DNA from: a virus
Taxonomy: Duplodnaviria > Heunggongvirae > Uroviricota > Caudoviricetes
DNA: 48,921 nucleotides
Strand: one strand, 5' to 3'
IMG/VR virus record: IMGVR_UViG_2778261394_000010
Shown here: positions 11,012 to 40,615 of the stretch, in pieces
Position numbering within the stretch: position 1 is the stretch's first letter
Layout: the number at the start of each line of letters is the position of its first letter
Notes under the pieces: model-generated
What the model saw: only the letters and a program-made list of their open reading frames with translations
Told to the model about the DNA's origin: nothing
The model's database searches: none
Made by a program: the position numbers and the translations under genes

Positions 11012-11802
11012 TTACGCCAGTTGTACGGACACGAACTCATCAGGGTCAGCCAGCAGCATCAGCGGTGCTGACTGAATCATGGTGAACTCACGCGCCGGAT
11101 CGCCGGTGGTCACCCAGTTTTTCGGGTAACGGGCAGAGGCGTTAATGCCTTCGCGCTGTGCGTCCGCATCCTGAATGCAGCCATAGGTGCGCAGACCGCG
11201 TGCCTGAGTGTTCCCCAGCACCATCGTGTTGTCCGGCAGGAAGTTCTTTTTGACGCCGTTTTCCACGTACTGTCCGGAATACACGACGATGGCCACATCG
11301 CCATACATCCCCTTATAGGACACCGCTTTACCTAGGTCTTTCACCGCTGTCTCCAGCTCGGAATTAGAGCCACGACGGGTATCCAGCTTTTCCTTGACGG
11401 CTTTGAAGGAACGGAACAGCGCCCAGCCTTTCGGATCAAACACGATGATATTCACCACACCGCTGGCGTTCAGCGCGTAGGCTTCGATATCGTCGGTCGG
11501 GTCATACGTGGACTTGTCACGCTTGCTCCACTCCGTGCCGCCGGACTGCGTGATGTTATTCTCCTCACTGCGGCCCATATCCACCTCAACCGGATCGAAG
11601 GCTTCACCGGTCATGGTGTATTTGCCCTTAAGCACGGCAGAAACTGCCTGCATCTCTTCGACCTGAGCAATGGCCAGCTCTTCGTCACGCATGTTCTGCA
11701 TGATGATGCGACGGCGGCGGTAAGCCGGGTCCGCCAGATTCTGCGGATCTTCATCCGGCAGGCGACGCAGGGTCATCTGCGGATTCACTTCATGCTTCGG
11801 CT
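11012..11802 (-). pseudogene. E: Major capsid protein E, 3' fragment (codons ~83-341), separated from its 5' part by the inserted element
   Basis: Frame reads …PKHEVNPQMTLRRLPDEDPQNLADP… to the normal E C-terminus (…DEFVSVQLA); an in-frame TAG immediately upstream at 11801-11803 marks the insertion junction. Confidence 0.9.
11793..11802. repeat. Left junction core of inserted element (TGCTTCGGCT; rc AGCCGAAGCA)
   Basis: Identical 10-mer recurs at 22723..22732; E-derived sequence is continuous across the two copies once the intervening 10.9 kb is removed. Confidence 0.85.
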
Positions 11803-11874
11803 ACATGAGTCAAATATGAAAGGAACTGAATGATTTTTAATGAAATAAATGGCTCTCTCTATCAAAATACAGCT

Positions 11875-11900
11875 AAAAAGCAATACACGTAGCAATACAG
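11875..11900. repeat. 26-bp terminal direct repeat, left copy (aaaaagcaatacacgtagcaatacag)
   Basis: Near-identical copy (aaaaagcaatacaagctgcaatacag) at 22570..22595 just inside the right junction; contains tandem GCAATACA half-sites. Confidence 0.6.
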
Positions 11901-11929
11901 CGCTTCGCAAAGGTATGTCACTATATCTA

Positions 11930-12865
11930 CTAGTGCCAACCAGAATACGAATATCTTTGCTTTGCTTCTTCTGGGCTCATACCCACTAGTAAAGATACTA
12001 ATTCAAAGTCAGGTTGTGGAATTGGAATCAATGCAGCCAAATATGCTGGCTTATTGAGAACAATTGTTGATAATTTAGCTTTATTCACCTTAGATAACTC
12101 AATATTACTTTCCGCCACCTTCGGGAACTCCATAATAAATGAATTAATTTCCCTTATGAGATAATCGATCAACGCCACTATACTTTCTGTCAAATCAATA
12201 TATTTTGACAACTCACTAGCACCAATTTCTTTCTTTATTTCATCCAATTTAATTTCAAACACTGGCTTGTCTTTACTGGCAATATTAGACAAACGTTTCT
12301 TTAAATCTGAATCAAGCTGATTCCTGACAATTAAACTTTTCAAAACAAAATTATAATTAAACAAAAAAGCATCAATTCGAGCAATATTCCTCCATGAGTT
12401 TCCAATTTCTTCATCTGACGGCATAATAAGTTCATGTTTTAGTATCTTGTACTTAATAAAAAAAACAAACCTCTCAAATAGAGATTTATTAGCTGTGGGT
12501 ATCTTTTTTATAAATGAAAGACGGCTAATATCGTAATTCACCTCCCCGGCGTTAAATAAAAATTCATTTATTGCCAGCGCTCTTAATATCGGATTTCTAG
12601 ATCTCAAACCAATATAACTACTTTTAATTCCCACAAGTGTATTTATCATCTGAAAAGAAACCATCATAAGCGTATTAGCAGAATTAAATTTCTCCGTTTC
12701 TATTTTAATCTTCTCTTGCCTATTATTGATGTAATAAGCAGTTAAGCCTCCCATAAGCGCCGATAAAAAAGATAATGCAATAGGGAATACATAATCTTTT
12801 GTATAATCAACATCTGCTTTCAACATTAGTATTGCTTTAGCAATCAAAACTGCATCAGGGGTCAT
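11930..12865 (-). CDS. Hypothetical protein, AT-rich cargo gene with a predicted N-terminal transmembrane segment
   Basis: Long ORF with low-GC codon usage unlike its neighbours; hydrophobic stretch YVFPIALSFLSALMGGLTAYYI; no recognisable motif. ATG at 12865 preferred over the TTG at 12895 used by the ORF track. Confidence 0.5.
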   Translation of the reverse strand: MTPDAVLIAKAILMLKADVDYTKDYVFPIALSFLSALMGGLTAYYINNRQEKIKIETEKFNSANTLMMVSFQMINTLVGIKSSYIGLRSRNPILRALAINEFLFNAGEVNYDISRLSFIKKIPTANKSLFERFVFFIKYKILKHELIMPSDEEIGNSWRNIARIDAFLFNYNFVLKSLIVRNQLDSDLKKRLSNIASKDKPVFEIKLDEIKKEIGASELSKYIDLTESIVALIDYLIREINSFIMEFPKVAESNIELSKVNKAKLSTIVLNKPAYLAALIPIPQPDFELVSLLVGMSPEEAKQRYSYSGWH

Positions 12866-13565
12866 GTTAGAGCCGTCATTAAAAATTAAACACAATACCC
12901 ATAAAATATAACAGCTTATTGTTTAGAAAAGCAATATCATACACTCTATGATAAGCGTAATATCTGACAGGCATGGTGTGTTACGACACTTAATTAAACG
13001 TAATTTGCTAAAATTTTACACACAGAATCACACCTGGCTCTAACTCTCCTTTCATTACAATTGTAAGCATACAATTATCCTACCAGAACTTTATTGTTGA
13101 GCTCTCCCTTTTGAGCCCATCCCATAATGAATTGACGAAAGAACCGTATCTGTGGAGTAATCATTTCTGCGCGGTTCTATGTCGAAGACAAAATGTGGTA
13201 TGCGCATCTAGTCAGAGGGAAAGCAATTTTTCAGGGAAATATCATCTCTACATGGTTAAGACAACCAGAAGAAGTTATCAAGCAAGTTGGGTATGAAGAT
13301 TTTCCTATAATAGTAACGAAACGGGTTTCACCTGAGCGGTTGTGTTCGATCCGCCACAATACGCATAGGATGCCCTGTAATCCGTATTCTGCTTACTCAA
13401 CAGCTTACCAGCAGGACTCGTAAGGCTGTTGCGATAGTGCAGAAGTAGGCCACGACCATAAAGTGAAGCCAGTGGCGCGTTATCGACTACTTTAGTGTAG
13501 AGCCTGATTTCAACGCAAGCATGAGAGTTTTTTCTGGCGATAGGCCGTGACAAACAGCAACAAAA

Positions 13566-13766
13566 TCAGAGAAAGGAAACGGCAGAGGCCAAAAAGCCCG
13601 TTTTCAGCGCCTGTCATTTCCTTTCTTTTCAGAGGGTATTTTAAATAAAAACATAAAGTTACGGCGAAGAAGAACGGAAACGCCTTAAACCGGAAAATTT
13701 CCATAAATAGAGAAAAACTGCGCGCCTGACGCCCCGTAGCCTGTCAGATCGCCGGAAAGGACCCGC
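13566..13766. other. cos-like site of the inserted element, homologous to the helper cos region but with a diverged cosN 12-mer
   Basis: About 200 bp aligns without gaps to helper 28935..29133 (most positions identical by eye); the cosN position reads cgcctgacgccc (13723..13734) against helper aggtcgtcgccc. Confidence 0.8.
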
Positions 13767-13790
13767 CAGCCAGAGCGGGCCCTAATTTCA

Positions 13791-14174
13791 TCAACCAATC
13801 AGCTTATAGCGACCATCCCGTGCATTGCGGCGTACACGCTCAATCTTGAGGCATAGCGCCGCATCTGGCTTTTTTGGGACAGGTACGCGGCAATATTCAG
13901 AAGCGCGAGGAATATTATTTATCCAGTCGATCACTTCACTTAAATACCAGGCCTTACGCCCTTCCGTAACCTGCACACGCTCCGGGAACTCTCCACTAGC
14001 CTCAAGGTTTAGCAGTGTACGCCGACTCAGGGTTGTAATTTCCATCACCTGATTCATATCAACAAGGCGCTCGCTTAAACACATTTTGTCAGCGATAGCT
14101 TTTAATTCCTCTACAGCTGGATTCGGGTACATCATTTCGGCAATTGGCTTAAGGTCATTGTAATCATTCTGCAT
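13791..14174 (-). CDS. HTH protein with an AlpA/MerR-like C-terminal half, function unknown (regulator or packaging-specificity factor)
   Basis: 127-aa ORF; segment EITTLSRRTLLNLEASGEFPERVQVTEGRKAWYLSEVIDWI resembles AlpA-family HTH; strong SD AAGGGGG; immediately downstream of the D-like gene and upstream of the cos-like site. Confidence 0.55.
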   Translation of the reverse strand: MQNDYNDLKPIAEMMYPNPAVEELKAIADKMCLSERLVDMNQVMEITTLSRRTLLNLEASGEFPERVQVTEGRKAWYLSEVIDWINNIPRASEYCRVPVPKKPDAALCLKIERVRRNARDGRYKLIG

Positions 14175-14185
14175 TGTATCCCCCT

Positions 14186-14527
14186 TTACACACGAGCCAG
14201 CGGCTGAACAGAAATACCTGAGCCAACAAACGCGGCAACCTTTGCCGACAGTTCTCTTACAGACTCAGGCCAGTTCAGAGCATCAACATTTAAAACACCT
14301 GTCTTATAAACCTGTGCCTGTGTTTTTTTCGCTGTGTCGATTTGTACAGCGGAAACATAAACCGCTTTGCCTGCGCTCGTTCCATCCCATACCACTAGCG
14401 CACCAGTTGCATCTTCCTGCATCAGTGGCGTAAACGCAGGTATTACCCCTTTATTGGCTGAAAATATCCCCAGCGTAGTAACCAGTGCTTCAGTGCCAGA
14501 CATGAGTTCAGTGTAATGAGTAGCCAT
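14186..14527 (-). CDS. Head decoration protein, diverged gpD homolog carried by the element
   Basis: 113 aa; …AFTPLMQEDATGALVVWDGTSAGKAVYVSAVQ… parallels lambda gpD …[35 protein letters not shown]…; strong SD AAGGGGGAG. Confidence 0.7.
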   Translation of the reverse strand: MATHYTELMSGTEALVTTLGIFSANKGVIPAFTPLMQEDATGALVVWDGTSAGKAVYVSAVQIDTAKKTQAQVYKTGVLNVDALNWPESVRELSAKVAAFVGSGISVQPLARV

Positions 14528-14536
14528 TGCTCCCCC

Positions 14537-15577
14537 TTAGCCAATGCGAACGGTAACAAAACGATTGATGCGGGCCGGTATTGGCTGTGGTGCTGAATGT
14601 GTCTGCACATATTCAATAGCCGGATCACCAGGCACAATATAGTTTTTCGGTGCAAGTTCGGCTTTAGTCAGCCCCATTCGGATTAGCTCCGGATCCTGAA
14701 TACCGCCATAGGCGACAATCCCCTGAAGAGCCGTATTGCCAAGCACCATCAAATCAGGATCAAGGAAATGTTTTTCAGTTCCGTCCTCGTCGGTATAACG
14801 CCCGCTGTATACAACAATCGCAACATCGCCCATATACCCTTTAAAACTCACCGAATCACCAAGGTCTTTAAGGGCCGTTTCCAGTTCGGAATTAGAACCA
14901 CGACGGGTATCCAGAGCCTCTTTTATCGCTCTGAATGAACGGTATTTCTTCCATACATTACCGCCCATAATGATGATATTAGTGACGCCCTCACTAAATT
15001 CTGCGTAGCTCTCAATATCATCATTTGGATCAAAAGTTTCTTTATCCTTACCTGACCACTCAGCACCGCCAGACTGAGTGATGATATTTTGTGGTTTAAT
15101 ATTCCAGTCCAGCTCATAACGTTCAATACCATCGCCCTCAATGATATTTTTCCCCGTTGTGATTGCCTGAACGGCAAGCCATTCAATACGTGCACGAATA
15201 GCTTTAGCCTGATTTACAATCGCCTGTTTAACTTTAATATTACGCGCTCCAAAAGCATTGTATTGCTCAGGTGATACACCAGCAGGGCGCACAGCTAACT
15301 TATTTGGATCAATGCTGCTTTTCGGCTTCATATAGCCTGGACGAATTGTTTTTGATTCGTACCCTTCGTCACGTGAAACTTTACTACCCACCATAGGAGA
15401 ACAAAACGCTGCAATTGGGATATTTGGATCGTCGATTGTATCAAGAATAATATCGCGCGATTCAAACATTACCGAGCGAGTAAAAAACAAACTGGTAAAC
15501 AACGCATTTAGTTGTTTTTGTACATCTACAGCATTAACCACCTGTACAAGCTGGGTAGGCGAATATAAATCAACCAT
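14537..15577 (-). CDS. Major capsid protein, diverged gpE homolog carried by the element
   Basis: 346 aa from ATG at 15577 (SD AAGAGGA); shares ITQSGG.EWS, TRRGSNSELET and GDVAIVVYSG motifs with lambda gpE but is clearly diverged; earlier in-frame starts at 15583 and 15598 are possible. Confidence 0.85.
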   Translation of the reverse strand: MVDLYSPTQLVQVVNAVDVQKQLNALFTSLFFTRSVMFESRDIILDTIDDPNIPIAAFCSPMVGSKVSRDEGYESKTIRPGYMKPKSSIDPNKLAVRPAGVSPEQYNAFGARNIKVKQAIVNQAKAIRARIEWLAVQAITTGKNIIEGDGIERYELDWNIKPQNIITQSGGAEWSGKDKETFDPNDDIESYAEFSEGVTNIIIMGGNVWKKYRSFRAIKEALDTRRGSNSELETALKDLGDSVSFKGYMGDVAIVVYSGRYTDEDGTEKHFLDPDLMVLGNTALQGIVAYGGIQDPELIRMGLTKAELAPKNYIVPGDPAIEYVQTHSAPQPIPARINRFVTVRIG

Positions 15578-15749
15578 ACGCATCCTCTTTGCATTCATTA
15601 AAAATAATTGTGGATATATGCTATCACCGATATTTGTCATGCGAATACATGCAACCGAGTGCAATGTTGTATAAAGTTTTGGGATGACAACTTCAGCACG
15701 GATAATTAGTGTTAATATCTTCACTCCCTTTGGTCTGGATTTATGTAGC

Positions 15750-15790
15750 ATGCCGGAAAATTTATTTTTTTTCCGGCCTTTTTTATTGGC
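15750..15790 (+). terminator. Hairpin with flanking T-tract (gccggaaaa…ttttccggc + ttttttatt)
   Basis: 9-bp perfect stem followed by a T-run on the plus strand, between the SSB and capsid genes; may act in either direction given the flanking A/T tracts. Confidence 0.4.
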
Positions 15791-15795
15791 AATAT

Positions 15796-16245
15796 TTAAA
15801 ACGGAATATCATCTCCCCATTGCTCATTATCTCCCACTGGTGGATGGCTTCCTTGCTGATCTGCCTGTTGTTTTGCTCTGTTCAGTGCGTCAGTAGCCTG
15901 ACCCTGTTGATCTTTTTTGCCGCCCGGTCGCACCGTTCGCGCACTGATTACGCTGTCTGCGATAACCTGCCAGCCCTGCCGCGTTTCACCGTTCTGTCCA
16001 GTCCACTGGCTCACCTGCATATTACCCGCCACGCTCAGGAGTTCGCCTTTGTGATGCTTTGCCAGCGTGTCGGCTTGTCTGCCAAACGCCAGCACAGATA
16101 ACCACATCGTCGCCGTTCCGTCATCTGCCTGGCTGCATGGCAAAGATACCGCCATCCGTGCCAGTGTCATGGGTGTTCCCTTGCTGGTATGTTTTACCTG
16201 TGGGTCGTCCACCAGCCGCCCGTAAGCTGCTATTTGCGCCGTCAT
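15796..16245 (-). CDS. ssb: Single-stranded DNA-binding protein
   Basis: 149 aa with Gly/Gln-rich linker and acidic C-terminal tail ending DDIPF, the SSB hallmark. Confidence 0.85.
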   Translation of the reverse strand: MTAQIAAYGRLVDDPQVKHTSKGTPMTLARMAVSLPCSQADDGTATMWLSVLAFGRQADTLAKHHKGELLSVAGNMQVSQWTGQNGETRQGWQVIADSVISARTVRPGGKKDQQGQATDALNRAKQQADQQGSHPPVGDNEQWGDDIPF

Positions 16246-16256
16246 GCTGCCTGCTC

Positions 16257-16499
16257 TCAGGACTTAATATTGATGGTTGTCACTTCCTCCGCTTCGGCAA
16301 TCTCCCGTTCGGTCAGCGTGGCAAAGTTTGCAGCCGCCGTTGTCATGAATGCGCTTATCAGTTCGGGATGTGCTTTCGCGTATCCTTCCCCGGCGTTGCG
16401 GTCTATTGCCTTAATCGCCACCCTTAGCCAGTGTTCAGCCATATCAAGGGCGCGGTAATGTGGCTTTATATGTTTGTTCAGTTTTCCTGATGTGTGCAT
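16257..16499 (-). CDS. Hypothetical protein
   Basis: 80-aa ORF between the iteron origin and ssb, co-oriented with the replication operon; no motif recognised. Confidence 0.4.
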   Translation of the reverse strand: MHTSGKLNKHIKPHYRALDMAEHWLRVAIKAIDRNAGEGYAKAHPELISAFMTTAAANFATLTEREIAEAEEVTTINIKS

Positions 16500-16546
16500 T
16501 TTTATTTTTACCCCCTCGTTTAAAAAGTTTTTTGTGCACCACCACC

Positions 16547-16777
16547 TTGTCTACCTTGTCTACCTGATTAGTTATCAGGCCAGTAATGGCGCGGGTTTCA
16601 GGGAGGTAGACAGCCCCAAATAGCTGTCTACCTCATCTCTACCCGTCTCCTTACCTGTCTACAAAAATGGGTAGATAAGGTAGATAACAGGTAGACAGTG
16701 AAAAATAGTTATCTACCTGCATTAATACATTGAAATAAAAGCATTTTATTTCAGTCAGGTAGACAAGGTAGATAACC
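16547..16777. repeat. Iteron cluster, putative replication origin of the element
   Basis: At least 12 copies of GGTAGAYA / TRTCTACC in both orientations, some tandem (ggtagataaggtagataacaggtagacag), with AT-rich spacers, immediately downstream of the primase-helicase gene. Confidence 0.7.
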
Positions 16778-16788
16778 ATTGCCATTTT

Positions 16789-18540
16789 TTATAAAAACGC
16801 ATCGCAATCATCAGTAGTCGTTGCGTTGGTCTGCGTGACTCCCTTAACTTTTCGCGTAATATATTCATATCCGTAAACTTTCGCCGCTGACCTCATAGCC
16901 TTTCCGAACTCATTCACGCTCAAACATTTCCCCTTTCCTGTATATGCCATGAAGGCCATATAGACACGGTAAAGGCTGTTTCTGGTCGTGTACTTCACGG
17001 TGTCACCACCACCGCCCATCATTAGCCCACGAGCTTCCTCCAGAAACTCCAGCGCCGCGCAAAGCTCAACAACCGGATCCGTTTGCTGCTTTATTGCCAG
17101 AGCTTCATCACCGTCACGCTGTTCCAGTAATAAAGCCCGTGCCTTTTCAGGGTCAGCAAAATTAGCCAGCAAGCGGCGGATAATTACGGGGATTTCTGCC
17201 GCTATCTTTTCCGGTAATTCCTTGTCTTTTTCGTCCTCCCTTACAATGTTGTCGAACCGGAAAATCACCCGACGGCGTGACACACCTCCGGCCCGTTCGG
17301 TAAAGATCATCGGGTCGTTATTGGTTGCCAGTACCACCGCCCTTATTATCGTCGTGAATCGCTTCTCATATTTCGGGTTAATTTCAACGGGATCGCCTCC
17401 CGTGATTTTCTTGATGCCCGTGCCTTCCCCCGTATATTTCGGCTGATCGGCAAGGACGATAAGACGACTCCCGACAACCTGCGCACGCCCTCCTGCATCA
17501 TCGAGTGATGTCATCTCTGCGCTTACGGTGTTCTGTTTGCCAGCAAGCAGGGTGGCAATATGGGTAAATGTACTCTTACCGCTTCCCCCGTCTCCGGTGG
17601 CCTCAATGAACATCTGCCAGTCGTACCGGTTCGCCATAATCATGTACAGCGCGGCACATATACGCATCATCTTGCGCGGGTCTTTTCCGGCTGCGTGCTC
17701 AAGCCATTTATGAAAGTTTGGCGCGTTATCGCGGATGTTCTCCCCTGGTGCTGGTGGCGTGTACTCAATGCCGTTGTGCGTGGTGATCCAGTTCTCCGGC
17801 GTGTGCGGGGAAAATTCCCCCGTTTTCAGGTCAAGCGCACCATTGGCGAACGGCAGCAAATCGCCGGACGGCTCGCCCATTGGTTCGGCAATAACTTTTA
17901 ACGCTTCAACGGCGTTATTGATCACGCGTTTGCTGAAAGTGGCCCTGTGCTCTGAATAGATCGCCACCATTTCGCGGCTCAGCTCCATTGTGCTGATCGG
18001 ACACCATACCCCGCCGCGCCATACGTGAACGATTTCACTTTCCGGATGCACACAAACGCCATCAAAGCGCTCGGCAAGCAGCTGCGCGCGCTCACTGTCT
18101 GCCATCTGTGAAAGTTGCGCCTTTTGCTTCGTCGGAAGATTAAGCACCAGGCTTTCCCCACGCTCGCATTCCTCTTTGAGTCGCGGCAACTGGTCGGATA
18201 AATCCACTGGGCTGGTGTCAGTAATCCCCGCGTATTCGTGTACGGTCTTCACTCCAGCCACAGCCAGTAACGTAACAATCTGCGTCATGCTGTGCTCTGT
18301 GATATGTCCTGCGCGGTAAACACGCACACACTGACGATCTTCATCAATGATCCGGTAATCGGTGATGTTTTTCAGTTGCTCATCAGCCAACACGACAGGC
18401 GGCACATCGTCGGCGGCAATATGTTTACCCGCCCATTCCTGCCACTCTTTCGCATGGCTCCACGCATCACTACCTGCAAAGATGATTATCTCTGTCAGTC
18501 TGTCGCGTGGCTGTTTTTTTAAGTTCGGTGCCAGTTTCAT
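16789..18540 (-). CDS. Primase-helicase replication protein (P4-alpha / D5-like, SF3 helicase)
   Basis: 583 aa; Walker A GDGGSGKST followed by a D5_N/SF3-like region (…IVLADQPKYTGEG…LATNNDP…); adjacent to the iteron origin. Confidence 0.85.
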   Translation of the reverse strand: MKLAPNLKKQPRDRLTEIIIFAGSDAWSHAKEWQEWAGKHIAADDVPPVVLADEQLKNITDYRIIDEDRQCVRVYRAGHITEHSMTQIVTLLAVAGVKTVHEYAGITDTSPVDLSDQLPRLKEECERGESLVLNLPTKQKAQLSQMADSERAQLLAERFDGVCVHPESEIVHVWRGGVWCPISTMELSREMVAIYSEHRATFSKRVINNAVEALKVIAEPMGEPSGDLLPFANGALDLKTGEFSPHTPENWITTHNGIEYTPPAPGENIRDNAPNFHKWLEHAAGKDPRKMMRICAALYMIMANRYDWQMFIEATGDGGSGKSTFTHIATLLAGKQNTVSAEMTSLDDAGGRAQVVGSRLIVLADQPKYTGEGTGIKKITGGDPVEINPKYEKRFTTIIRAVVLATNNDPMIFTERAGGVSRRRVIFRFDNIVREDEKDKELPEKIAAEIPVIIRRLLANFADPEKARALLLEQRDGDEALAIKQQTDPVVELCAALEFLEEARGLMMGGGGDTVKYTTRNSLYRVYMAFMAYTGKGKCLSVNEFGKAMRSAAKVYGYEYITRKVKGVTQTNATTTDDCDAFL

Positions 18541-18836
18541 TTTTTGCCCCTGAATGCGTTAATCATGCTTTTCATTTTCTGGATGTTTCCCCGCGCTTTT
18601 TCCCTGCTGATGGGCTTACTGCGGGGTGCGGCATATACCAGGGAAAAATCACGCCGGAACTGATAAACAGGCATCACGCAGTCATAGCTATACCCCTCAC
18701 GACGGTAAGTGATGCGCCGTTCTGCCACGCCTTTAATCGTTACCGTGCCGCCGTATTTATCGCGGTAAATATCGCCGTTCATAAATTCAGGCCGAGCGGG
18801 GCCGCTGGCAATAAAGCCAGAATTTTTCATTTCCAT
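18537..18836 (-). CDS. Hypothetical protein
   Basis: 99-aa ORF whose stop overlaps the primase-helicase start (4-nt overlap), suggesting translational coupling. Confidence 0.4.
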   Translation of the reverse strand: MEMKNSGFIASGPARPEFMNGDIYRDKYGGTVTIKGVAERRITYRREGYSYDCVMPVYQFRRDFSLVYAAPRSKPISREKARGNIQKMKSMINAFRGKK

Positions 18837-18853
18837 ATTATTTATTCCTCGAC

Positions 18854-19075
18854 TTAACTCGACTTATTTGATAGCAGGGCACTATTTATTGCGTCATTGA
18901 GTTTTTCTGCTGCTTCATCAATAAGTGACAACAGGCCATAAGCAATATTTGCATCTTCATTGTCATTTATGCAATCAAGCCACATATTTAATATTGCTTT
19001 TGCTGAATTATTTAAAGTTAATGAACTTTCTGCACATGCTAACAATTTAAAAAAGACTTCCCGTTCTGTATTCAT
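18854..19075 (-). CDS. Hypothetical small protein (AT-rich)
   Basis: 73-aa ORF in the same operon; low GC. Confidence 0.3.
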   Translation of the reverse strand: MNTEREVFFKLLACAESSLTLNNSAKAILNMWLDCINDNEDANIAYGLLSLIDEAAEKLNDAINSALLSNKSS

Positions 19076-19267
19076 TTAATCCCCCACCAGCTTACTTTCT
19101 TCCTCAATCAAAAAACTAGCGACACTTCCCGAAAGACGCGCCAGTAGGCTCGCCAGTGCGGATATATCAGCATCTGTAATTTTGTTCGGGTATACCTCAA
19201 GAAGGCGGCAAATAATTTCTGTCTGGTGCGCACGTTCAGCGGCTTCGTGTAATGTGATTTCCTGCAT
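19076..19267 (-). CDS. Hypothetical small protein
   Basis: 63-aa ORF tightly packed between neighbours. Confidence 0.3.
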   Translation of the reverse strand: MQEITLHEAAERAHQTEIICRLLEVYPNKITDADISALASLLARLSGSVASFLIEEESKLVGD

Positions 19268-19452
19268 TAATGCACCTCTTTTAATTCATACACTGCTGAA
19301 ATAATGACTTGTGATAAGCCATATTCTGATGATTCGCTTCTCACCGCAGCAATAGCCGTCTGAACATTAACAGCCTTCACATTCTGAGCGATACCAATTG
19401 TGTGGCCTATTGGGTTAACAGCTCGGGCAAATACACGGAAGGTTTTAAGCAT
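19267..19452 (-). CDS. Hypothetical small protein, first gene of the element's leftward operon
   Basis: 61-aa ORF directly downstream of the divergent control region. Confidence 0.3.
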   Translation of the reverse strand: MLKTFRVFARAVNPIGHTIGIAQNVKAVNVQTAIAAVRSESSEYGLSQVIISAVYELKEVH

Positions 19453-19832
19453 GACTCACTCCCTGGCGGATTTTTGCAGCGAATACAGCAACACAACCGG
19501 ACGGGCAACGGCTACGCGCTTCGCGTTCCGTCCAGGCGGTTACGTGGATGATTTGAGATTCTCCGGCACTCAGTGCCAGAAAACGCCACACAAAGGCCGT
19601 TTGTGTGTGTACAAGGTGTGGTATATGATTTACAGCAACCATAACGGCTCCTAGTTTACGTTGTTGGTTAGACGCCCCGTATGTGTTCCCAGCACTGCGG
19701 GGCGTTGCTCTTTGTATTTCAACAATCCTTTCGGTGTGTTTCATGTTATGAGCGCATGAAACACACGTCAAGGCTTTTTGTATTTCTTTTTTTGTGTATA
19801 CTGAAACACACCGATGATTAGGAGTTTCAGAA

Positions 19833-20138
19833 ATGGCAACGGCTAACAAAAACGCAAAATCACAACTGACAACTGTCAGAGTCCCACTAGATGTTATGCA
19901 AGGGATGGAATCCGTTAAGCTGGACGGTGAAAGCAATGCCGGATTTATCGTAACCGCCATGCGCGGTGAAATCGCCCGCCGCCAGGCAGAAGGAAGCGGA
20001 GAAAATCCCCTCGTGTCTTCACTGGATACCTTAGCTAAGGTCGAACAAATCGGCATCAAGGCAGCGGAGGAAATCGGGCAACTCGTAGCCGTCGCTCGTG
20101 AAGAACTCCAGCGGCGTAAAGCCAAAGAATCTGAATAA
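19833..20138 (+). CDS. Putative regulator of the element, fold not assigned
   Basis: 101-aa ORF with strong SD AGGAG, transcribed divergently from the replication/capsid operon across a structured intergenic region. Confidence 0.4.
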   Translation: MATANKNAKSQLTTVRVPLDVMQGMESVKLDGESNAGFIVTAMRGEIARRQAEGSGENPLVSSLDTLAKVEQIGIKAAEEIGQLVAVAREELQRRKAKESE

Positions 20139-20488
20139 TTAGTATCAGCGCCGTGATGTGAGTAACTACGGCGCATTGCTATGTAAATACTGGCAATAAA
20201 CAGAAAAGGTAGTTCTACTCCGAATAATTTTATCTGACACTACTCCTGAACTAACATGCGCTTATCTTACAGGATATAAATATAAATCCATAAAATCACG
20301 ATTAAATAAAGTCGCTCCAAACATAAACCACACCCAACGCTTAACAAGATAGCAACAAACAGGTAAATAACTTGCAGAAATATTTATCGCAAGGATTATC
20401 ATTATTAATGACAAATCACTTTACCAAGTCATTCCCCTCTCTTATCATAAAGAGAAAGTAATAAATAAGTTAAGGGAGTTAGAATGCT

Positions 20489-21025
20489 ATGAATCTAAAA
20501 AAAATAGCCACAAACACAAAAAACAAGATAACAGAAACATTTAATAAACTTATATTAGAGGCATCTAAAACCCCCACACAAGATGAAATTAAAATACTTG
20601 AGAGAAGGAGTAAGAAGTTTAATTACTCCTTTTTCTCATACGCAGTCACAGGAGCTATAATAGTTTTTTGCTCTCAACCATTAATTAAATACGCAAACCC
20701 AATACTTATTTTATTGAGTGGTCTGTTACTGTCTATCATCATTATCATTCTCAGAATGATTTATATTTCACAAGCGAATGCATCATGGACAACCAAAAAA
20801 CGCTCACATGTACTAGTTCATTTTCTTTCTGCATGTTTCATAGCATCAACATTGACGTTGCTATATCAGGCTTACGATAATAACATCACACACAAATTGT
20901 ACTGTAAAAATATACAACAACTTATTGAAAAAAGGATAGAAACAGAAAAAAACATCAGCATATTCAGTGGGATGCAATGCACCCCGGTATATGATTACTC
21001 TTTATTTGGATTTAATCTCTTATAA
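20489..21025 (+). CDS. Hypothetical membrane protein, AT-rich cargo gene
   Basis: 178 aa with hydrophobic segments (AVTGAIIVFCSQPLI, ILILLSGLLLSIIIIIL); very low GC; followed by a perfect 13-bp inverted repeat. Confidence 0.5.
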   Translation: MNLKKIATNTKNKITETFNKLILEASKTPTQDEIKILERRSKKFNYSFFSYAVTGAIIVFCSQPLIKYANPILILLSGLLLSIIIIILRMIYISQANASWTTKKRSHVLVHFLSACFIASTLTLLYQAYDNNITHKLYCKNIQQLIEKRIETEKNISIFSGMQCTPVYDYSLFGFNLL

Positions 21026-21034
21026 AGAATGTTA

Positions 21035-21068
21035 TTACTGATTTGAGTACAAATTCTCAAATCAGTAA
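21035..21068. terminator. Perfect 13-bp inverted repeat (ttactgatttgag / ctcaaatcagtaa), probable bidirectional terminator
   Basis: Lies between the convergent cargo gene (+) and the AlpA gene (-), flanked by A/T runs. Confidence 0.5.
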
Positions 21069-21094
21069 TTCATAATATTTTATTCTGAGATAAT

Positions 21095-21331
21095 TTAAAC
21101 TACCCACTCACCTCGAATCCATGCCTGCACTTCTGAAAGACGATATGCAACAGCAGTGGAACCAATCTTGATCCGCTTAGGAAATTTTCCTTCCTTCTCC
21201 AGCTTCCAGCGTGTGCTGTTCGCAAGAGTGGTTAGCTCCCGACATTCTTTCTCACGGATCATTCGGTCAATGTTAGGAATGTACTCCAGACCCTTTTTAT
21301 CAACAATTGCCATTTTTTTCATGTTAACCAA
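21095..21331 (-). CDS. alpA: AlpA-family HTH regulator / excisionase-like protein
   Basis: 78 aa; ELTTLANSTRWKLEKEGKFPKRIKIGSTAVAYRLSEVQAWI fits the AlpA/Xis HTH_17 pattern; immediately downstream of the integrase. Confidence 0.75.
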   Translation of the reverse strand: MVNMKKMAIVDKKGLEYIPNIDRMIREKECRELTTLANSTRWKLEKEGKFPKRIKIGSTAVAYRLSEVQAWIRGEWVV

Positions 21332-22559
21332 CCTTTTGTTTGAGGATTGTCACTTTTGAATCAGCACCTGCGATGCTATTGAGATATGTAGTCCAGAGTT
21401 CCAGAGCATCCAGTTTTTTAGCCATAAACTTACTCCGGTTGTAAACACCTGCCACGCCAGGTAGCGCATGGCCTAACAGTTGTTCTACTACATAAAATTC
21501 AACACCGAGATCACTTAGATGAGTAGATAGCGTTCTTCTAAGGTCGTGTAGTGACCATTGTTTTTCATGGCCCAAACGTTTACCGATTTTCCCCCCAATC
21601 TTGCTTACGCTTTCTCTAATTCGCAGACTTCCCAGCACATAACCAGTATGTTTTGTCTCTTCGTGAACATCCGTTACCCACTGTCGTAGAATTTCAGGTA
21701 CTGGTCTGACGATTTCAACACCAGTTTTTGAGTGATCTTTTGGTACAGTCCAAACCCAACTTTCGAGATCCCATTCGCTCCATTCTGATAATCGGGCTTC
21801 ACTCATTCGACATCCAAATACTGTACAAAGCACAAACATTTTTCGCGTGTATTCAGACATTAGTTTTAAATCAGGCTCGACAAAAATTGCCTTCCAGAGC
21901 TGGCCGAGTTCGGCTTCATCCAGAACCCGATCCCGCTTACCTGCAATCTGCCCCACATCACTCATGCGCAAATCCTTTAAAGCATCACACGTCGCGTACT
22001 GGCGTACCCGACAAAAACGAAGAGCTAATTTAGTGTCAGAAAAAACATACGCCGCCATAACTGGTGCATTACGTTTAATTCGGTCAAAACAGTCCAGCCA
22101 TTCATATAGGTGAGTGTCATTTACGGGCAAATGACCGATATAGGGAAAGATATGCTTTCGAAATCTGCCAAGCGTTACAGCATGAGTTTTACGACGCACC
22201 TTACAGTAATTTTCATACCAGTAATTTAGTGCATCCTCCACTGTAACCGGCTTTAAGCGTTCTTCAGCCTGAATCTTAATCTGGATACGCGGATCACGTT
22301 TGTCAGCCAACCAACCACGGCACTCGTCGCGCTTTTCCCTTGCCTGTTTGAGTGACATATCAGGATATTTACCCAACGTTAGCCAGACCGGAGCAGCCCG
22401 GCCACCTGCTAACCTGTAGAAGAAAACAAAGCTCACAGCCCCTTTAGTACTCACACGAATAGAAAGCCCCTTTCCATCAGCAATGGTGATCTGCTTTTCT
22501 CTGGGTTTCCCCAGATATCCTTTAAGCGCTTTGTCGCTCAGTTTGTTCTCGCCAGCCAT
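21324..22559 (-). CDS. int: Tyrosine integrase (P4-type) of the inserted element
   Basis: ATG at 22559 gives MAGENKLSDKALKGYLG…; C-terminal catalytic region with …HDLRRTLSTHLSDLGV…LLGHA…; about 160 bp from the right junction core. Confidence 0.9.
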   Translation of the reverse strand: MAGENKLSDKALKGYLGKPREKQITIADGKGLSIRVSTKGAVSFVFFYRLAGGRAAPVWLTLGKYPDMSLKQAREKRDECRGWLADKRDPRIQIKIQAEERLKPVTVEDALNYWYENYCKVRRKTHAVTLGRFRKHIFPYIGHLPVNDTHLYEWLDCFDRIKRNAPVMAAYVFSDTKLALRFCRVRQYATCDALKDLRMSDVGQIAGKRDRVLDEAELGQLWKAIFVEPDLKLMSEYTRKMFVLCTVFGCRMSEARLSEWSEWDLESWVWTVPKDHSKTGVEIVRPVPEILRQWVTDVHEETKHTGYVLGSLRIRESVSKIGGKIGKRLGHEKQWSLHDLRRTLSTHLSDLGVEFYVVEQLLGHALPGVAGVYNRSKFMAKKLDALELWTTYLNSIAGADSKVTILKQKVG

Positions 22560-22569
22560 TTTTAGCCCC

Positions 22570-22595
22570 AAAAAGCAATACAAGCTGCAATACAG
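22570..22595. repeat. 26-bp terminal direct repeat, right copy
   Basis: aaaaagcaatacaagctgcaatacag, matching the left copy at 11875..11900 at 24 of 26 positions by eye. Confidence 0.6.
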
Positions 22596-22722
22596 AGATG
22601 ATTGCAACACACAGATAACGAGGAAAATTCAGTGAAAGCACCAGATAAACTTATTCTTTATTATCAAAAGATTAAGTGTAAAAACCAGCAACTACACGAA
22701 AGCCTCAGAAAGCCATGCTAAG

Positions 22723-22732
22723 TGCTTCGGCT
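22723..22732. repeat. Right junction core of inserted element (TGCTTCGGCT)
   Basis: Second copy of the 10-mer; on the minus strand E reads …GTC AAG CCG AAG CAC and then diverges into element sequence (LAWLSEAFV stop). Confidence 0.85.
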
Positions 22733-28911: not shown

Positions 28912-29135
28912 TGTTCATTCCACGGCCAAAAACAGAGAAAGGAAACGACAAAGGCCCAAAAGTTCGTTTTCAGCACCTGTCGTTTCCTTTCTTTTCAGGG
29001 GGTATTTTAAATAAAAACATTAAGTTACGACGAAGAAGAACGGAAACGCCTTAAACCGGAAAATTTTCATAAATAGCGAAAACCCGCGAGGTCGTCGCCC
29101 CGTAACCTGTCGGATCGCCGGAAAGGACCCGCAAA
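28912..29135. other. Helper phage cos region (cosB - cosN - cosQ); cosN 12-mer at 29089..29100
   Basis: Sequence is the reverse complement of the remembered lambda genome ends; cosN reads aggtcgtcgccc, one position different from lambda aggtcgccgccc; the Nu1 start abuts the cosB side. Confidence 0.85.
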
Positions 29136-38359: not shown

Positions 38360-39057
38360 ACACTGGCTCCTTTCAGTCCGAACTTAGCTTTGATTTCTGC
38401 GATCTTCGCCAGAGCCTGAGCCCGGTTAAGTGGTCTACCGCCCATGACAGGAAGTTGTTTTACTGGTTCAGGTATAGCCTCACCACGGTTAATTCGTGCG
38501 GTCATACAGGACAGTTCATCGGCAGCCTTGCGCCGTAATTCCGCGTCAGTCAACGCATTGGCCCGCATGTTCTGATACAGGTTGGTAACCAGCCAGTAGT
38601 GCGCGTTTGATTTCCACGGATAAGACTCTGCATCCGGATACAGCCCGCGCTTCCGGCAATACTCGTAAACCATATCAACCAGCTCGCTGGCGTCTGGCAG
38701 CCCGGCGGTAACGGATGCTTCTTCCCGGCACCAGGCGACAAACTGCCCGGGTGATGGCAGGAATGGTCGATTCTGCCGACGGGCTACGCGCATTCCAGCG
38801 TTAACCTGTTCCATTGTGGTGATCCCGTTTTCCCGGAAAGCCAGAACCCACTGGCGGCGAATTTCGTTCAGTTCGTTCTGGTCACGGTTAGCCAGGCTCG
38901 CAGGGAAAGTTGCCAGCAACTGGCTGAATACACCGTTGATGATCTGCGCTACCTGCTGTACCTGCGGCTTTTCGTCGTACTGTTCCGGCATGTTGTTGGC
39001 GATCCGACGCATCTGCTCACGGTCAAAGTTAATCATCTGTGCGGCGATGTTTTTCAT
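38356..39057 (-). CDS. P: Replication protein P (DnaB helicase loader)
   Basis: 233-aa ORF MKNIAAQMINFDREQMRRIANNMPEQYDEKPQVQQVAQ…, lambda gpP. Confidence 0.95.
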   Translation of the reverse strand: MKNIAAQMINFDREQMRRIANNMPEQYDEKPQVQQVAQIINGVFSQLLATFPASLANRDQNELNEIRRQWVLAFRENGITTMEQVNAGMRVARRQNRPFLPSPGQFVAWCREEASVTAGLPDASELVDMVYEYCRKRGLYPDAESYPWKSNAHYWLVTNLYQNMRANALTDAELRRKAADELSCMTARINRGEAIPEPVKQLPVMGGRPLNRAQALAKIAEIKAKFGLKGASV

Positions 39058-39983
39058 AGATCCACCCCGTAAATCCAGTCTGTGTTTGTCAGGTCGAGTT
39101 TTGATTTTCCGGCTGTCACGCCAGCCTGTTGTTTGTTACGGTTGATTTCGAGTTGGGTCCACTTGTCGCGAAGTTTGGCCGGGCTCAGCACGTTACCAGA
39201 CCAAAAGTTGTCCTGGCATGCCCAGCGGAACAGCACGCACATGTCGCGGTGGTTACGTCCGTCACGTTCACGCATCAGGCGGATATCGTTAGCCCATCCT
39301 GCAAAATTCGGTTTTCTGGCTGATGGCGCGATGGTCTTCACCATGTCAAACATCCACTCTGCGGCGGTCAGGTCTTCTGCTGTCCCCCACTTGCTGCCGC
39401 TCTGAATTGCAGCATCTGGTTTCACCACAGGAAGATCGTTTTCTGATTGGTCAGAGGATTCGCCAGAATTCTCGGACGAAAAAGGTTTTATATTGTCTTT
39501 TGTTAGTTTGTCTTTTGTGTTTACCTGATTCGGGTAAACGCCTTTACCTGATTTGGGTAAACTTTTCTTACCTGATTCAGGTAAATTTACCTCTTTCAGG
39601 TAAACTTTATTTTTCTTACCTGATTCGGGTAATGTTGACCATTCACTGACCACATTATTAATGCCGATATTCCGCCCGCTCTGAATAAAAATCCCACGCT
39701 TTACCAGAATACTTTTTGCAGCAGAACACTTGTGCGGCAATATCCCGGTTAATTCGGAAAGTTGCTCGTTGCTAACCCAATCCTGTTTTTTATTAAAGCC
39801 ATATGTTTTGCGCATGACAGCCAGAAAGACCAGAAGCTGGTGCTGTGTTAATCCGGCCAGCATCACAGCTTCCAGCAACTCATTTGCAATGCGCGTATAA
39901 CCATCATCGAGATCTGCCACGCGCCGCTCCTTTTGTGCCTCATCCGGCACTGGAAAATTGAATATCTCAGCAGTGTTTGCCAT
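39054..39983 (-). CDS. O: Replication initiator O (lambda O family; central region diverged, contains the ori)
   Basis: ATG at 39983 with SD GGAGG gives MANTAEIFNFPVPDEAQKERRVADLDDGY…; conserved O N-terminal and P-interacting C-terminal parts; iterons inside the gene. Confidence 0.85.
   Translation of the reverse strand: MANTAEIFNFPVPDEAQKERRVADLDDGYTRIANELLEAVMLAGLTQHQLLVFLAVMRKTYGFNKKQDWVSNEQLSELTGILPHKCSAAKSILVKRGIFIQSGRNIGINNVVSEWSTLPESGKKNKVYLKEVNLPESGKKSLPKSGKGVYPNQVNTKDKLTKDNIKPFSSENSGESSDQSENDLPVVKPDAAIQSGSKWGTAEDLTAAEWMFDMVKTIAPSARKPNFAGWANDIRLMRERDGRNHRDMCVLFRWACQDNFWSGNVLSPAKLRDKWTQLEINRNKQQAGVTAGKSKLDLTNTDWIYGVDL
39521..39633. repeat. Helper replication origin: four to five ~19-bp iterons within O
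   Basis: ttacctgattcgggtaaac, ttacctgatttgggtaaac, ttacctgattcaggtaaat, tacctctttcaggtaaac and ttacctgattcgggtaat, adjacent to an AT-rich stretch, as at ori-lambda. Confidence 0.75.
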
Positions 39984-40069
39984 AATTCCTCCCGCAATGA
40001 GTGTGTTACGATTTGCACCTGAAAGTCGGTTCTGTTCGCGCAGACCGGCTTTCGCCATTTCCGAACCTG

Positions 40070-40615
40070 TCATATTGCCCCCAGCATGGTGGTGACCATC
40101 GCCATCAGTGGACCAGCCAGATCCGGGTCCACACGAAACATCGACACAATGCCTTCACTCATCTCCTTCAGTTTCTGGTGGCGTGGTGCGTTGAGAATGA
40201 CAGCCTGTTTTGCCTCACTGAGTTCCTTTTCCATTTCAGCCAGCCGAGCCATGTAGCTATCCTGCTCAACCAGGTGGCCGCGATATTCCAGCGGTAGTAC
40301 CGCCAGAATTGCCGGGGTCAGTTCACGCACGTTATTTCGGTATTTTTCAGAATCGAATTTGTTATCGAGGAAGCGGAACAGCTTCTGGCGTGCACGACTG
40401 ACATCATCAGGGAAATCGATGGTGCCGCCGCCCTGCTCCCGATACTCATTCACAATGAGTGCGGCAACAACATCCTGATTATCTGCAGCCGACCAGGCGC
40501 GAACGGCATCACGGATTTTTTCGTGGCCTGGCGCCTGTTTTGTTTGAGAACGATTTATCACCGCAGTCGGGCTAAATCCGCTAGTCTGTTGGTATGTAAG
40601 TGGTTGCATAGTCAT
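40070..40615 (-). CDS. Hypothetical protein in the cII position (YdaT-like)
   Basis: 181-aa ORF directly downstream of the cro-like gene and upstream of O; family assignment is from memory only. Confidence 0.45.
   Translation of the reverse strand: MTMQPLTYQQTSGFSPTAVINRSQTKQAPGHEKIRDAVRAWSAADNQDVVAALIVNEYREQGGGTIDFPDDVSRARQKLFRFLDNKFDSEKYRNNVRELTPAILAVLPLEYRGHLVEQDSYMARLAEMEKELSEAKQAVILNAPRHQKLKEMSEGIVSMFRVDPDLAGPLMAMVTTMLGAI

Follow-up and report, generated by a model that had tools for sequence, protein, structure and literature searches.

The satellite element and its genes

The window, i.e. the whole 48,921-bp stretch of DNA analysed here, contains a smaller element inserted in the lambda-E-like major capsid gene of its helper prophage (Table 1). 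The helper capsid protein is split by the insertion into amino acids 1-82 on one side and amino acids 80-341 on the other, and the same 10-bp identity block, TGCTTCGGCT, is found at both junctions, as in the helper-embedded PICIs of the capE site (Tommasini 2023). A generic direct-repeat search did not single out the att site, which was located with the help of an intact lambdoid capsid protein mapped to the window. E. coli strain 104 has an identical copy, in whose RefSeq annotation the lambdoid major capsid gene on the flanks is given as two pseudogene halves.

The features of the element are those of a Gram-negative PICI: int, alpA and pri all lie on the minus strand, its length of 10.93 kb falls within the range of 10-20 kb, and it carries a copy of the cos site. 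The only structural homologues in it are a capsid gene and a decoration gene, without tail or lysis genes. More specifically, the element is of the published '11capE' type. The founder of this type is 11capE, found in E. coli NRG857c (Tommasini, Mageeney & Williams 2023, PMC10111431); it is likewise helper-embedded, measures 11 kb, has an identity block of 10 bp and brings a capsid gene of its own. The two elements have in common the site in the lambdoid major capsid gene, the 10-bp block, a length of about 11 kb and co-orientation with the helper late genes. The replication module is common: of 5426 complete E. coli genomes, 1060 contain a match to it, with an identity of 95% or higher in 78.

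The cos copies of satellite and helper are 89% identical over 206 bp. Their 12-nt cosN cores (helper AGGTCGTCGCCC, satellite GCCTGACGCCCC, plus strand) differ at about 5 positions, a difference that may bear on the mechanism, already published, by which E. coli PICIs redirect packaging. At the far end of the satellite lies a cargo ORF of 321 aa, which has no match in Pfam, NCBIfam or PADLOC. Strains 104 and NRG857c have a DUF262 + HEPN gene pair at this end of the element; therefore, the end looks like a variable accessory slot, possibly for defence. For an ORF of 178 aa, PADLOC gave no match and Pfam only a sub-threshold one to DUF443.

Table 1. Features of the satellite element and of its helper in the window
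Feature	Position	Strand	Basis or remark
Helper major capsid gene, part for aa 1-82	22967-22722		split lambda-E-like protein
Right 10-bp identity block	22723-22732		TGCTTCGGCT
Helper-embedded PICI, ~10.93 kb (about 11803-22732)	11793..22732	-	10-bp blocks inside helper capsid gene
int	21324-22610	-	
AlpA-family gene, 75 aa	21095-21322	-	adjoins int
Replication cassette (small ORFs, DUF4222, pri, ori, start of 80-aa ORF)	16453..19845	-	segment differing from founder 11capE
DUF4222 gene	18537..18836	-	overlaps pri start by 4 nt; member of conserved replication module
pri/rep, 583 aa, initiator-helicase (annotated 'DNA primase family protein')	16789..18540	-	Pfam, TIGR01613, PDB, homology to EcCICFT073 and P4
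N-terminal domain of Pri, residues 1-130, Toprim-like alpha/beta fold	18151..18540	-	no recognisable primase motifs
Walker A GDGGSGKS of Pri, residues 316-323, SF3 helicase core	17572..17595	-	motif
C-terminal winged-helix domain of Pri, residues 487-578, predicted iteron reader	16807..17082	-	1KA8 match; iteron class tracks domain
Stop codon of pri	16789-16791	-	
Iteron array, 12 sites aGGTAGAYAa	16548..16774	both	pattern counts, shuffles, conservation in 7 E. coli relatives
Iteron starts with strands	16548-, 16557-, 16605+, 16625-, 16636- (GGTAGAGA), 16656- (TGTAGACA), 16670+, 16679+, 16690+, 16710-, 16758+, 16767+	as given	
AT-rich 40-bp spacer, candidate DNA-unwinding element	16718..16757	.	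GC ~0.23, lowest in region
Conserved 22-bp GC-rich block ccagtaatggcgcgggtttcag	16580..16601	.	alignment of 7 E. coli relatives
80-aa ORF directly after origin	16257..16499	-	preceded by conserved RBS block GAGGGGG
Satellite ssb	15796..16245	-	PF00436, E = 3e-15
Satellite capsid gene	14537-15751		
Satellite decoration gene	14186-14527		
Second AlpA-family gene, 127 aa	13791-14174	-	after decoration gene
Satellite cos copy	13561-13766		
Cargo ORF, 321 aa	11930-12895	-	satellite far end
Left 10-bp identity block	11793-11802		TGCTTCGGCT
Helper major capsid gene, part for aa 80-341	11800-11018		split lambda-E-like protein
Helper cos	28927-29132		
Helper Phage_rep_O gene	39054-40073	-	PF04492
Helper origin repeats	39520-39634		five ~20-bp repeats

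The Pri protein and the genes around it

The satellite genes downstream of the intergenic array described below are, in order, the 80-aa ORF, ssb, the lambda-E-like capsid gene, the D-like decoration gene and an AlpA-family gene. The earlier note had placed the array upstream of ssb; the order is right, except that the 80-aa ORF intervenes. This ORF has no match in Pfam, NCBIfam or PADLOC. The DUF4222 gene was considered as a counterpart of P4 Cnr/ORF106, both being located immediately upstream of the initiator gene, and was rejected as such because the two are not similar.

Pri is matched by the Pfam families D5_N, DUF5906 and Pox_D5, and its match to TIGR01613 ('phage/plasmid primase, P4 family') is just under the cut-off of the model. 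Residues 194-441 match the helicase of SaPI5 PriRep (PDB 7OLA, E = 4e-14), and residues 487-578 match the origin-binding domain of P4 alpha (PDB 1KA8, E = 2.3e-7). The identity between Pri and P4 alpha is 41% over residues 137-579.

The N-terminal 136 aa differ from P4 alpha in that they are matched by none of the Zn-ribbon and Toprim families of Pfam, while the 313 aa in their place in P4 alpha are matched by both. A MAFFT alignment of low identity puts the glutamate of 'EGYATA' and the aspartates of 'DRD' in P4 opposite A22 and R76-A-G of Pri. The domain resembles a remnant of Toprim and is probably inactive, judging by its sequence. On this reading of the N-terminus, Pri is probably an initiator-helicase that leaves priming to the host. 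Because the N-terminus has no recognisable primase domain, autonomous replication would still require host priming. Of the 'Walker-A primase-helicase' of 583 aa proposed earlier, the position next to the array, the Walker A motif and the helicase are thus retained, and the primase, for want of a recognisable catalytic domain, is not. The label 'DNA primase' on these 580-aa proteins should be treated cautiously.

The iteron array

Scanning the window for the motif GGTAGAYA yielded ten exact matches, every one of them inside the interval 16548-16774. The chance expectation for the whole window is about 1.25, and ten matches were reached in none of 100 dinucleotide-preserving shuffles. When one mismatch was allowed, two further sites, 16636-16643 (GGTAGAGA) and 16656-16663 (TGTAGACA), were added to the array, making a total of twelve, and no second cluster appeared in the window. 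The invariant core of the motif is the hexamer GGTAGA, which occurs 11 times in 235 bp (Poisson P ~4e-26 from the background rate); the rest of the 10.9-kb element has no copy of it, and elsewhere in the window there is at most one copy per 300 bp. From the twelve aligned sites, the extended consensus a-GGTAGA-Y-A-a was derived.

The sites are equally divided between the strands, six on each, and include four tandem pairs, three at a spacing of 9 bp and one at 11 bp. The claim of at least 12 copies in both orientations, partly in tandem, is thus borne out, with the proviso that two of the twelve carry one mismatch. The successive start-to-start spacings are 9, 48, 20, 11, 20, 14, 9, 11, 20, 48 and 9. 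The series of orientations (- - + - - - + + + - + +) is unchanged when reverse-complemented, which gives the array dyad symmetry about position ~16666. It is wholly intergenic and lies 3' of pri, beginning 15 bp past the stop codon.

The two gaps of the array differ in composition. The AT-rich spacer separates the iteron at 16710(-) from the tandem pair at 16758/16767(+) and is off-centre, two of the iterons (16758+ and 16767+) lying between it and pri and ten beyond it. The 40-bp gap that mirrors it contains the GC-rich block ccagtaatggcgcgggtttcag and no iteron. No sigma-70 promoter or terminator consensus was found in the interval 16200-17000, and no DnaA box, IHF, Fis-like or GATC pattern in the origin region. 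An Rfam scan of the whole element gave no match at E ≤ 0.1, and a megablast search of the region against a phage collection gave none. The possibility that the repeats represent a cos or packaging site was also considered and ruled out, the cos copy of the satellite being located elsewhere (Table 1).

Homology to the tested origin of EcCICFT073

The origins of Gram-negative PICIs are located immediately 3' of pri-rep and have an AT-rich stretch between short iterons of both orientations (Fillol-Salom 2018, PMC6092414). The window array agrees with this description: it immediately follows pri/rep on the 3' side, and its iterons stand on both sides of an AT-rich stretch, although with an unequal split of 2 versus 10. 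Moreover, it is homologous to a validated member of the group, the ori of EcCICFT073. A plasmid carrying pri-ori of EcCICFT073 was maintained at the restrictive temperature, and upon deletion of pri or ori it was lost or its maintenance was much reduced; deletion of pri-rep lowered the transfer of the island about 100-fold (PMC6092414).

The order DUF4222, pri, a 288-bp intergenic region, a small ORF, ssb, and capsid and decoration genes is common to EcCICFT073 and the window element, and the two Pri proteins are 81% identical, the identity being only 44% in the N-terminal 136 aa. The intergenic regions can be aligned; they agree in the positions of the GGTAGA cores and share the AT-rich spacer and the conserved GC-rich block, and they differ at several sites in the bases flanking the hexamers. 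The two elements differ in location, EcCICFT073 residing in the chromosome next to roxA, upstream of phoQ, and the window element inside a prophage gene.

To these two sequences, five further E. coli relatives were added in an alignment of the intergenic region (n = 7). Invariant columns make up 51 of 66 in the GGTAGA hexamers and 84 of 223 in the rest of the region (Fisher p = 2e-8). The block ccagtaatggcgcgggtttcag is nearly invariant in the seven sequences, with C200-G220 constant save for two columns. In six relatives, the 30-mer richest in AT is found equally far past the pri stop; its place and composition are kept, and its sequence differs. Two relatives (L005 and L006) have no DNA similarity detectable by megablast past the pri stop, and still have the hexamers at the same offsets despite altered flanking bases (e.g. 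GGTAGAGG). A chance occurrence or a neutral short tandem repeat, for which nothing speaks beyond the small size of the motif, is ruled out by the shuffles, by the Poisson probability and by the position-conserved hexamers amid diverging spacers.

Co-variation of the iterons and the winged-helix domain

Arrays are found at the same place, past the initiator gene, in other satellites and phages, with different iterons. The window element, EcCICFT073 and strain CI5 have GGTAGA arrays, P4 and the phage/satellite KppS-Ant have GGTGAACA, and in the Serratia phage Scapp the repeat is AAAAGTGCAA. Between KppS-Ant and P4, the identity of the winged-helix domains is 49%, and either domain is only 32-36% identical to those of the GGTAGA group.

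A survey of this relationship was based on a scan of genome contigs with one genome per species, because a large protein search gave only close E. coli relatives (80-92% identical), and it comprised 77 usable loci. In 41 of these, some 7-mer occurs at least five times in the 400 nt past the stop codon, compared with 2-4 in a gene-body control and at most 6 in shuffles. The remaining 36, mostly with ~811-aa P4-like proteins of Xenorhabdus, have no strong array within 400 nt downstream, so that the rule of an array after pri is not universal. Among the loci L043-L080, which are mostly from Xenorhabdus and Photorhabdus and encode P4-alpha-like proteins of ~811 aa, only 2-4 GATGTATA-like words were seen in the 400 nt; their origins may lie elsewhere or be more degenerate.

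The class of the iterons is more closely associated with the winged-helix domain than with the helicase core. Nearest neighbours belong to the same iteron class in 34 of 40 loci by the winged-helix domain and in 25 of 40 by the helicase core. Within a class, the mean identities of the two domains are similar (61.7% and 63.0%, respectively), whereas between classes they are 40.6% and 55.3%. Individual loci show the same trend from both sides. In L015-L019, the helicase core is 62-64% and the winged helix ~30% identical to those of the window Pri, and the iterons are ATGAACAC or GGTATAC; in L090 and L091, the helicase core is 45% and the winged helix 50% identical, and the iterons are GGTAGA. 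Exceptions are L034 (Escherichia ruysiae) and L089 (Kluyvera georgiana), which have arrays of the GGTAGAC/GTAGACA type together with winged helices only 32-35% identical to that of the window.

Exchange of the replication cassette in 11capE

The comparison of the element with the NRG857c locus (L094:9300-20500) provides a case of such a change between otherwise very similar satellites. Two segments of the element, int-alpA and ssb-capsid-decoration-HTH, have a DNA identity of 97.5% to the founder 11capE. Between these segments 11capE has another allele of the replication cassette, with a Pri of 606 aa that is 47% identical to that of the window and, downstream of pri, nine P4-type ACTGTTCACC iterons in place of the GGTAGAYA array. 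The two also differ at the cargo end, where 11capE has DUF262+HEPN and the window element the 321-aa ORF. Since a different Pri and different iterons occur together between near-identical flanks, Pri and the iterons move together as a cassette, as is expected of an initiator and its cognate origin.

This exchange bears on a regulatory interpretation of the array. Plasmid iterons often double as autoregulatory or handcuffing sites. The array might likewise be mainly an operator, at which Pri or another DNA-binding protein of the satellite (AlpA, HTH) controls read-through into the operon of the 80-aa ORF, ssb and capsid genes, or limits copy number by handcuffing, and at which replication is not initiated. 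Its position after pri and ahead of the operon, in a region lacking a terminator consensus, and the conserved non-iteron block inside it are compatible with such a function. We consider this very improbable, because the region 16200-17000 has no promoter consensus, because the iteron class tracks the winged helix of Pri and is swapped together with pri, and because the homologous region of EcCICFT073 is needed for plasmid replication (PMC6092414). Regulation could moreover coexist with origin function instead of replacing it, and a secondary role of the array in regulation or copy control could thus be accommodated.

The founder also provides data on induction. In 11capE, the whole composite was replicated before excision of the satellite, and the satellite attP:attB ratio, determined in three inductions, was ~1 twice and 1.6-1.9 once (PMC10111431). 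The ratios of ~1 suggest that replication after excision may be weak. The origin may then be intact and redundant, the embedded satellite being replicated passively from the O/P origin of the helper with little contribution of its own ori. These data, however, came from a different pri/ori allele. Furthermore, ongoing selection is indicated by the intact pri ORF of the window and by the far stronger conservation of the hexamers than of the spacers in many E. coli genomes, and the deletion of pri-rep in EcCICFT073 had a strong effect on transfer, as described above (PMC6092414). Redundancy therefore seems a slim prospect.

Comparison with the origins of P4, SaPIs and the helper

P4 alpha is homologous to the window Pri in its helicase core and its C-terminal origin-binding winged helix, and the P4 crr corresponds in place to the array: the P4 record annotates ten 8-bp 'type 1' repeats in both orientations, starting 46 bp past the alpha stop. 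The two replicons otherwise differ. P4 alpha has a primase domain of 313 aa with Zn-ribbon and Toprim, which the window Pri lacks; the type-1 iteron of P4 is TGTTCACC, that of the window GGTAGAYA; and P4 needs two clusters in cis, ori and crr, 4.5 kb apart, where the window element has one. Of the features of a P4 replicon, the window module therefore has the winged-helix domain, and lacks the Zn-ribbon/Toprim domain, the TGTTCACC iteron and the second cluster.

The correspondence with crr raises the question of whether the array is a cis-acting replication enhancer, with the true start of replication elsewhere, as in P4. The like position, the like 8-bp repeats in both orientations and the resemblance of Pri to P4 alpha in the helicase and winged-helix regions would all be explained by it. 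A division of the P4 kind is, however, unlikely in view of the single GGTAGA cluster in the 10.9-kb element. In addition, the array holds an AT-rich spacer of its own, and in EcCICFT073 a plasmid was maintained with no more than pri and the region adjoining it on the 3' side (PMC6092414). The enhancer interpretation is accordingly given very little weight here.

The organisation of the window module is also similar to that of the SaPIs (Ubeda et al. 2007; Qiao et al. 2022, PMC9371898), whose Rep, a self-loading helicase-initiator of the SF3 family, has a winged helix at its C-terminus. The iterons recognised by this winged helix, 6-12 in number, directly follow rep and surround an AT-rich region, and the self-loading of two hexamers there has been proposed (PMC9371898). 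Short iterons right after the initiator gene, an AT-rich region and flanking iterons in opposite directions are common to both systems. The SaPIs differ in their distant sequence, their Gram-positive hosts and their iterons of 5-6 nt with other sequences; their AT-rich region is roughly central, while that of the window element is off-centre.

The helper has an origin of a different kind. Five partly palindromic repeats of ~20 bp (TTTACCTGATTCGGGTAAAC type) are located inside its Phage_rep_O gene (Table 1), in agreement with the earlier note, which had described 19-bp iterons inside O at 39521..39633. The lambda origin has four such repeats, so that the helper origin has one more. A lambda-type origin consists of ~19-bp iterons inside the initiator gene and bound by O; the satellite array is intergenic, has an 8-bp motif and is associated with an initiator of a different family. 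The satellite module and the helper origin are therefore distinct, as had been claimed.

Interpretation

The array at 16548-16774 is best interpreted as the cognate replication origin of the helper-embedded PICI satellite, a reading to which we assign a probability of about 0.88. The earlier note had come to the same reading, and it is supported by the position and architecture typical of PICI origins, the homology to the EcCICFT073 ori, the 1KA8-like domain of Pri and the co-variation of the iterons with this domain.

Initiation at this origin may be envisaged as follows. The 583-aa protein encoded just upstream would act as a self-loading SF3 helicase-initiator, and its C-terminal winged-helix domain would read the iterons through their GGTAGA core. 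Given the dyad-symmetric arrangement of the sites in tandem and inverted pairs, the bound protomers would assemble on both sides of the 40-bp AT-rich spacer. The spacer would then melt, and double hexamers would presumably be loaded there, leading to bidirectional theta replication. The satellite SSB, encoded just downstream, would coat the unwound DNA, and the primers would probably be provided by host DnaG and not by Pri. Independent replication after excision, which had been predicted for the element, may be expected of it.

These points may be combined in a broader hypothesis, which we regard as tentative, with the odds somewhat against it. The Pri of a large family of PICIs would be no primase, having a degenerate Toprim N-terminus without the zinc ribbon, the catalytic E and the DxD of P4 alpha. 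Such satellites would encode only an origin-specific, self-loading SF3 helicase and an SSB, with priming by host DnaG or by the helper, and the dyad-symmetric array of 12 sites would load two opposed hexamers. Helper-embedded satellites that are otherwise identical would swap pri and ori as a cassette and thereby change the specificity of the replicon.

The type of origin, and a close relative of the window origin in EcCICFT073, have already been described and tested, and the biology is in this respect known. The result thus mainly confirms existing knowledge and opens no new question. Of practical use is that the iteron sequence is predictable from the C-terminal domain of Pri, which may serve the annotation of satellite origins and the prediction of incompatibility. 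For the helper-embedded PICIs, the result means that the satellite carries a complete module of origin and initiator, of the type validated in EcCICFT073, and it supports the idea that these satellites may replicate alone once excised, or that their origins may even fire while they are embedded.
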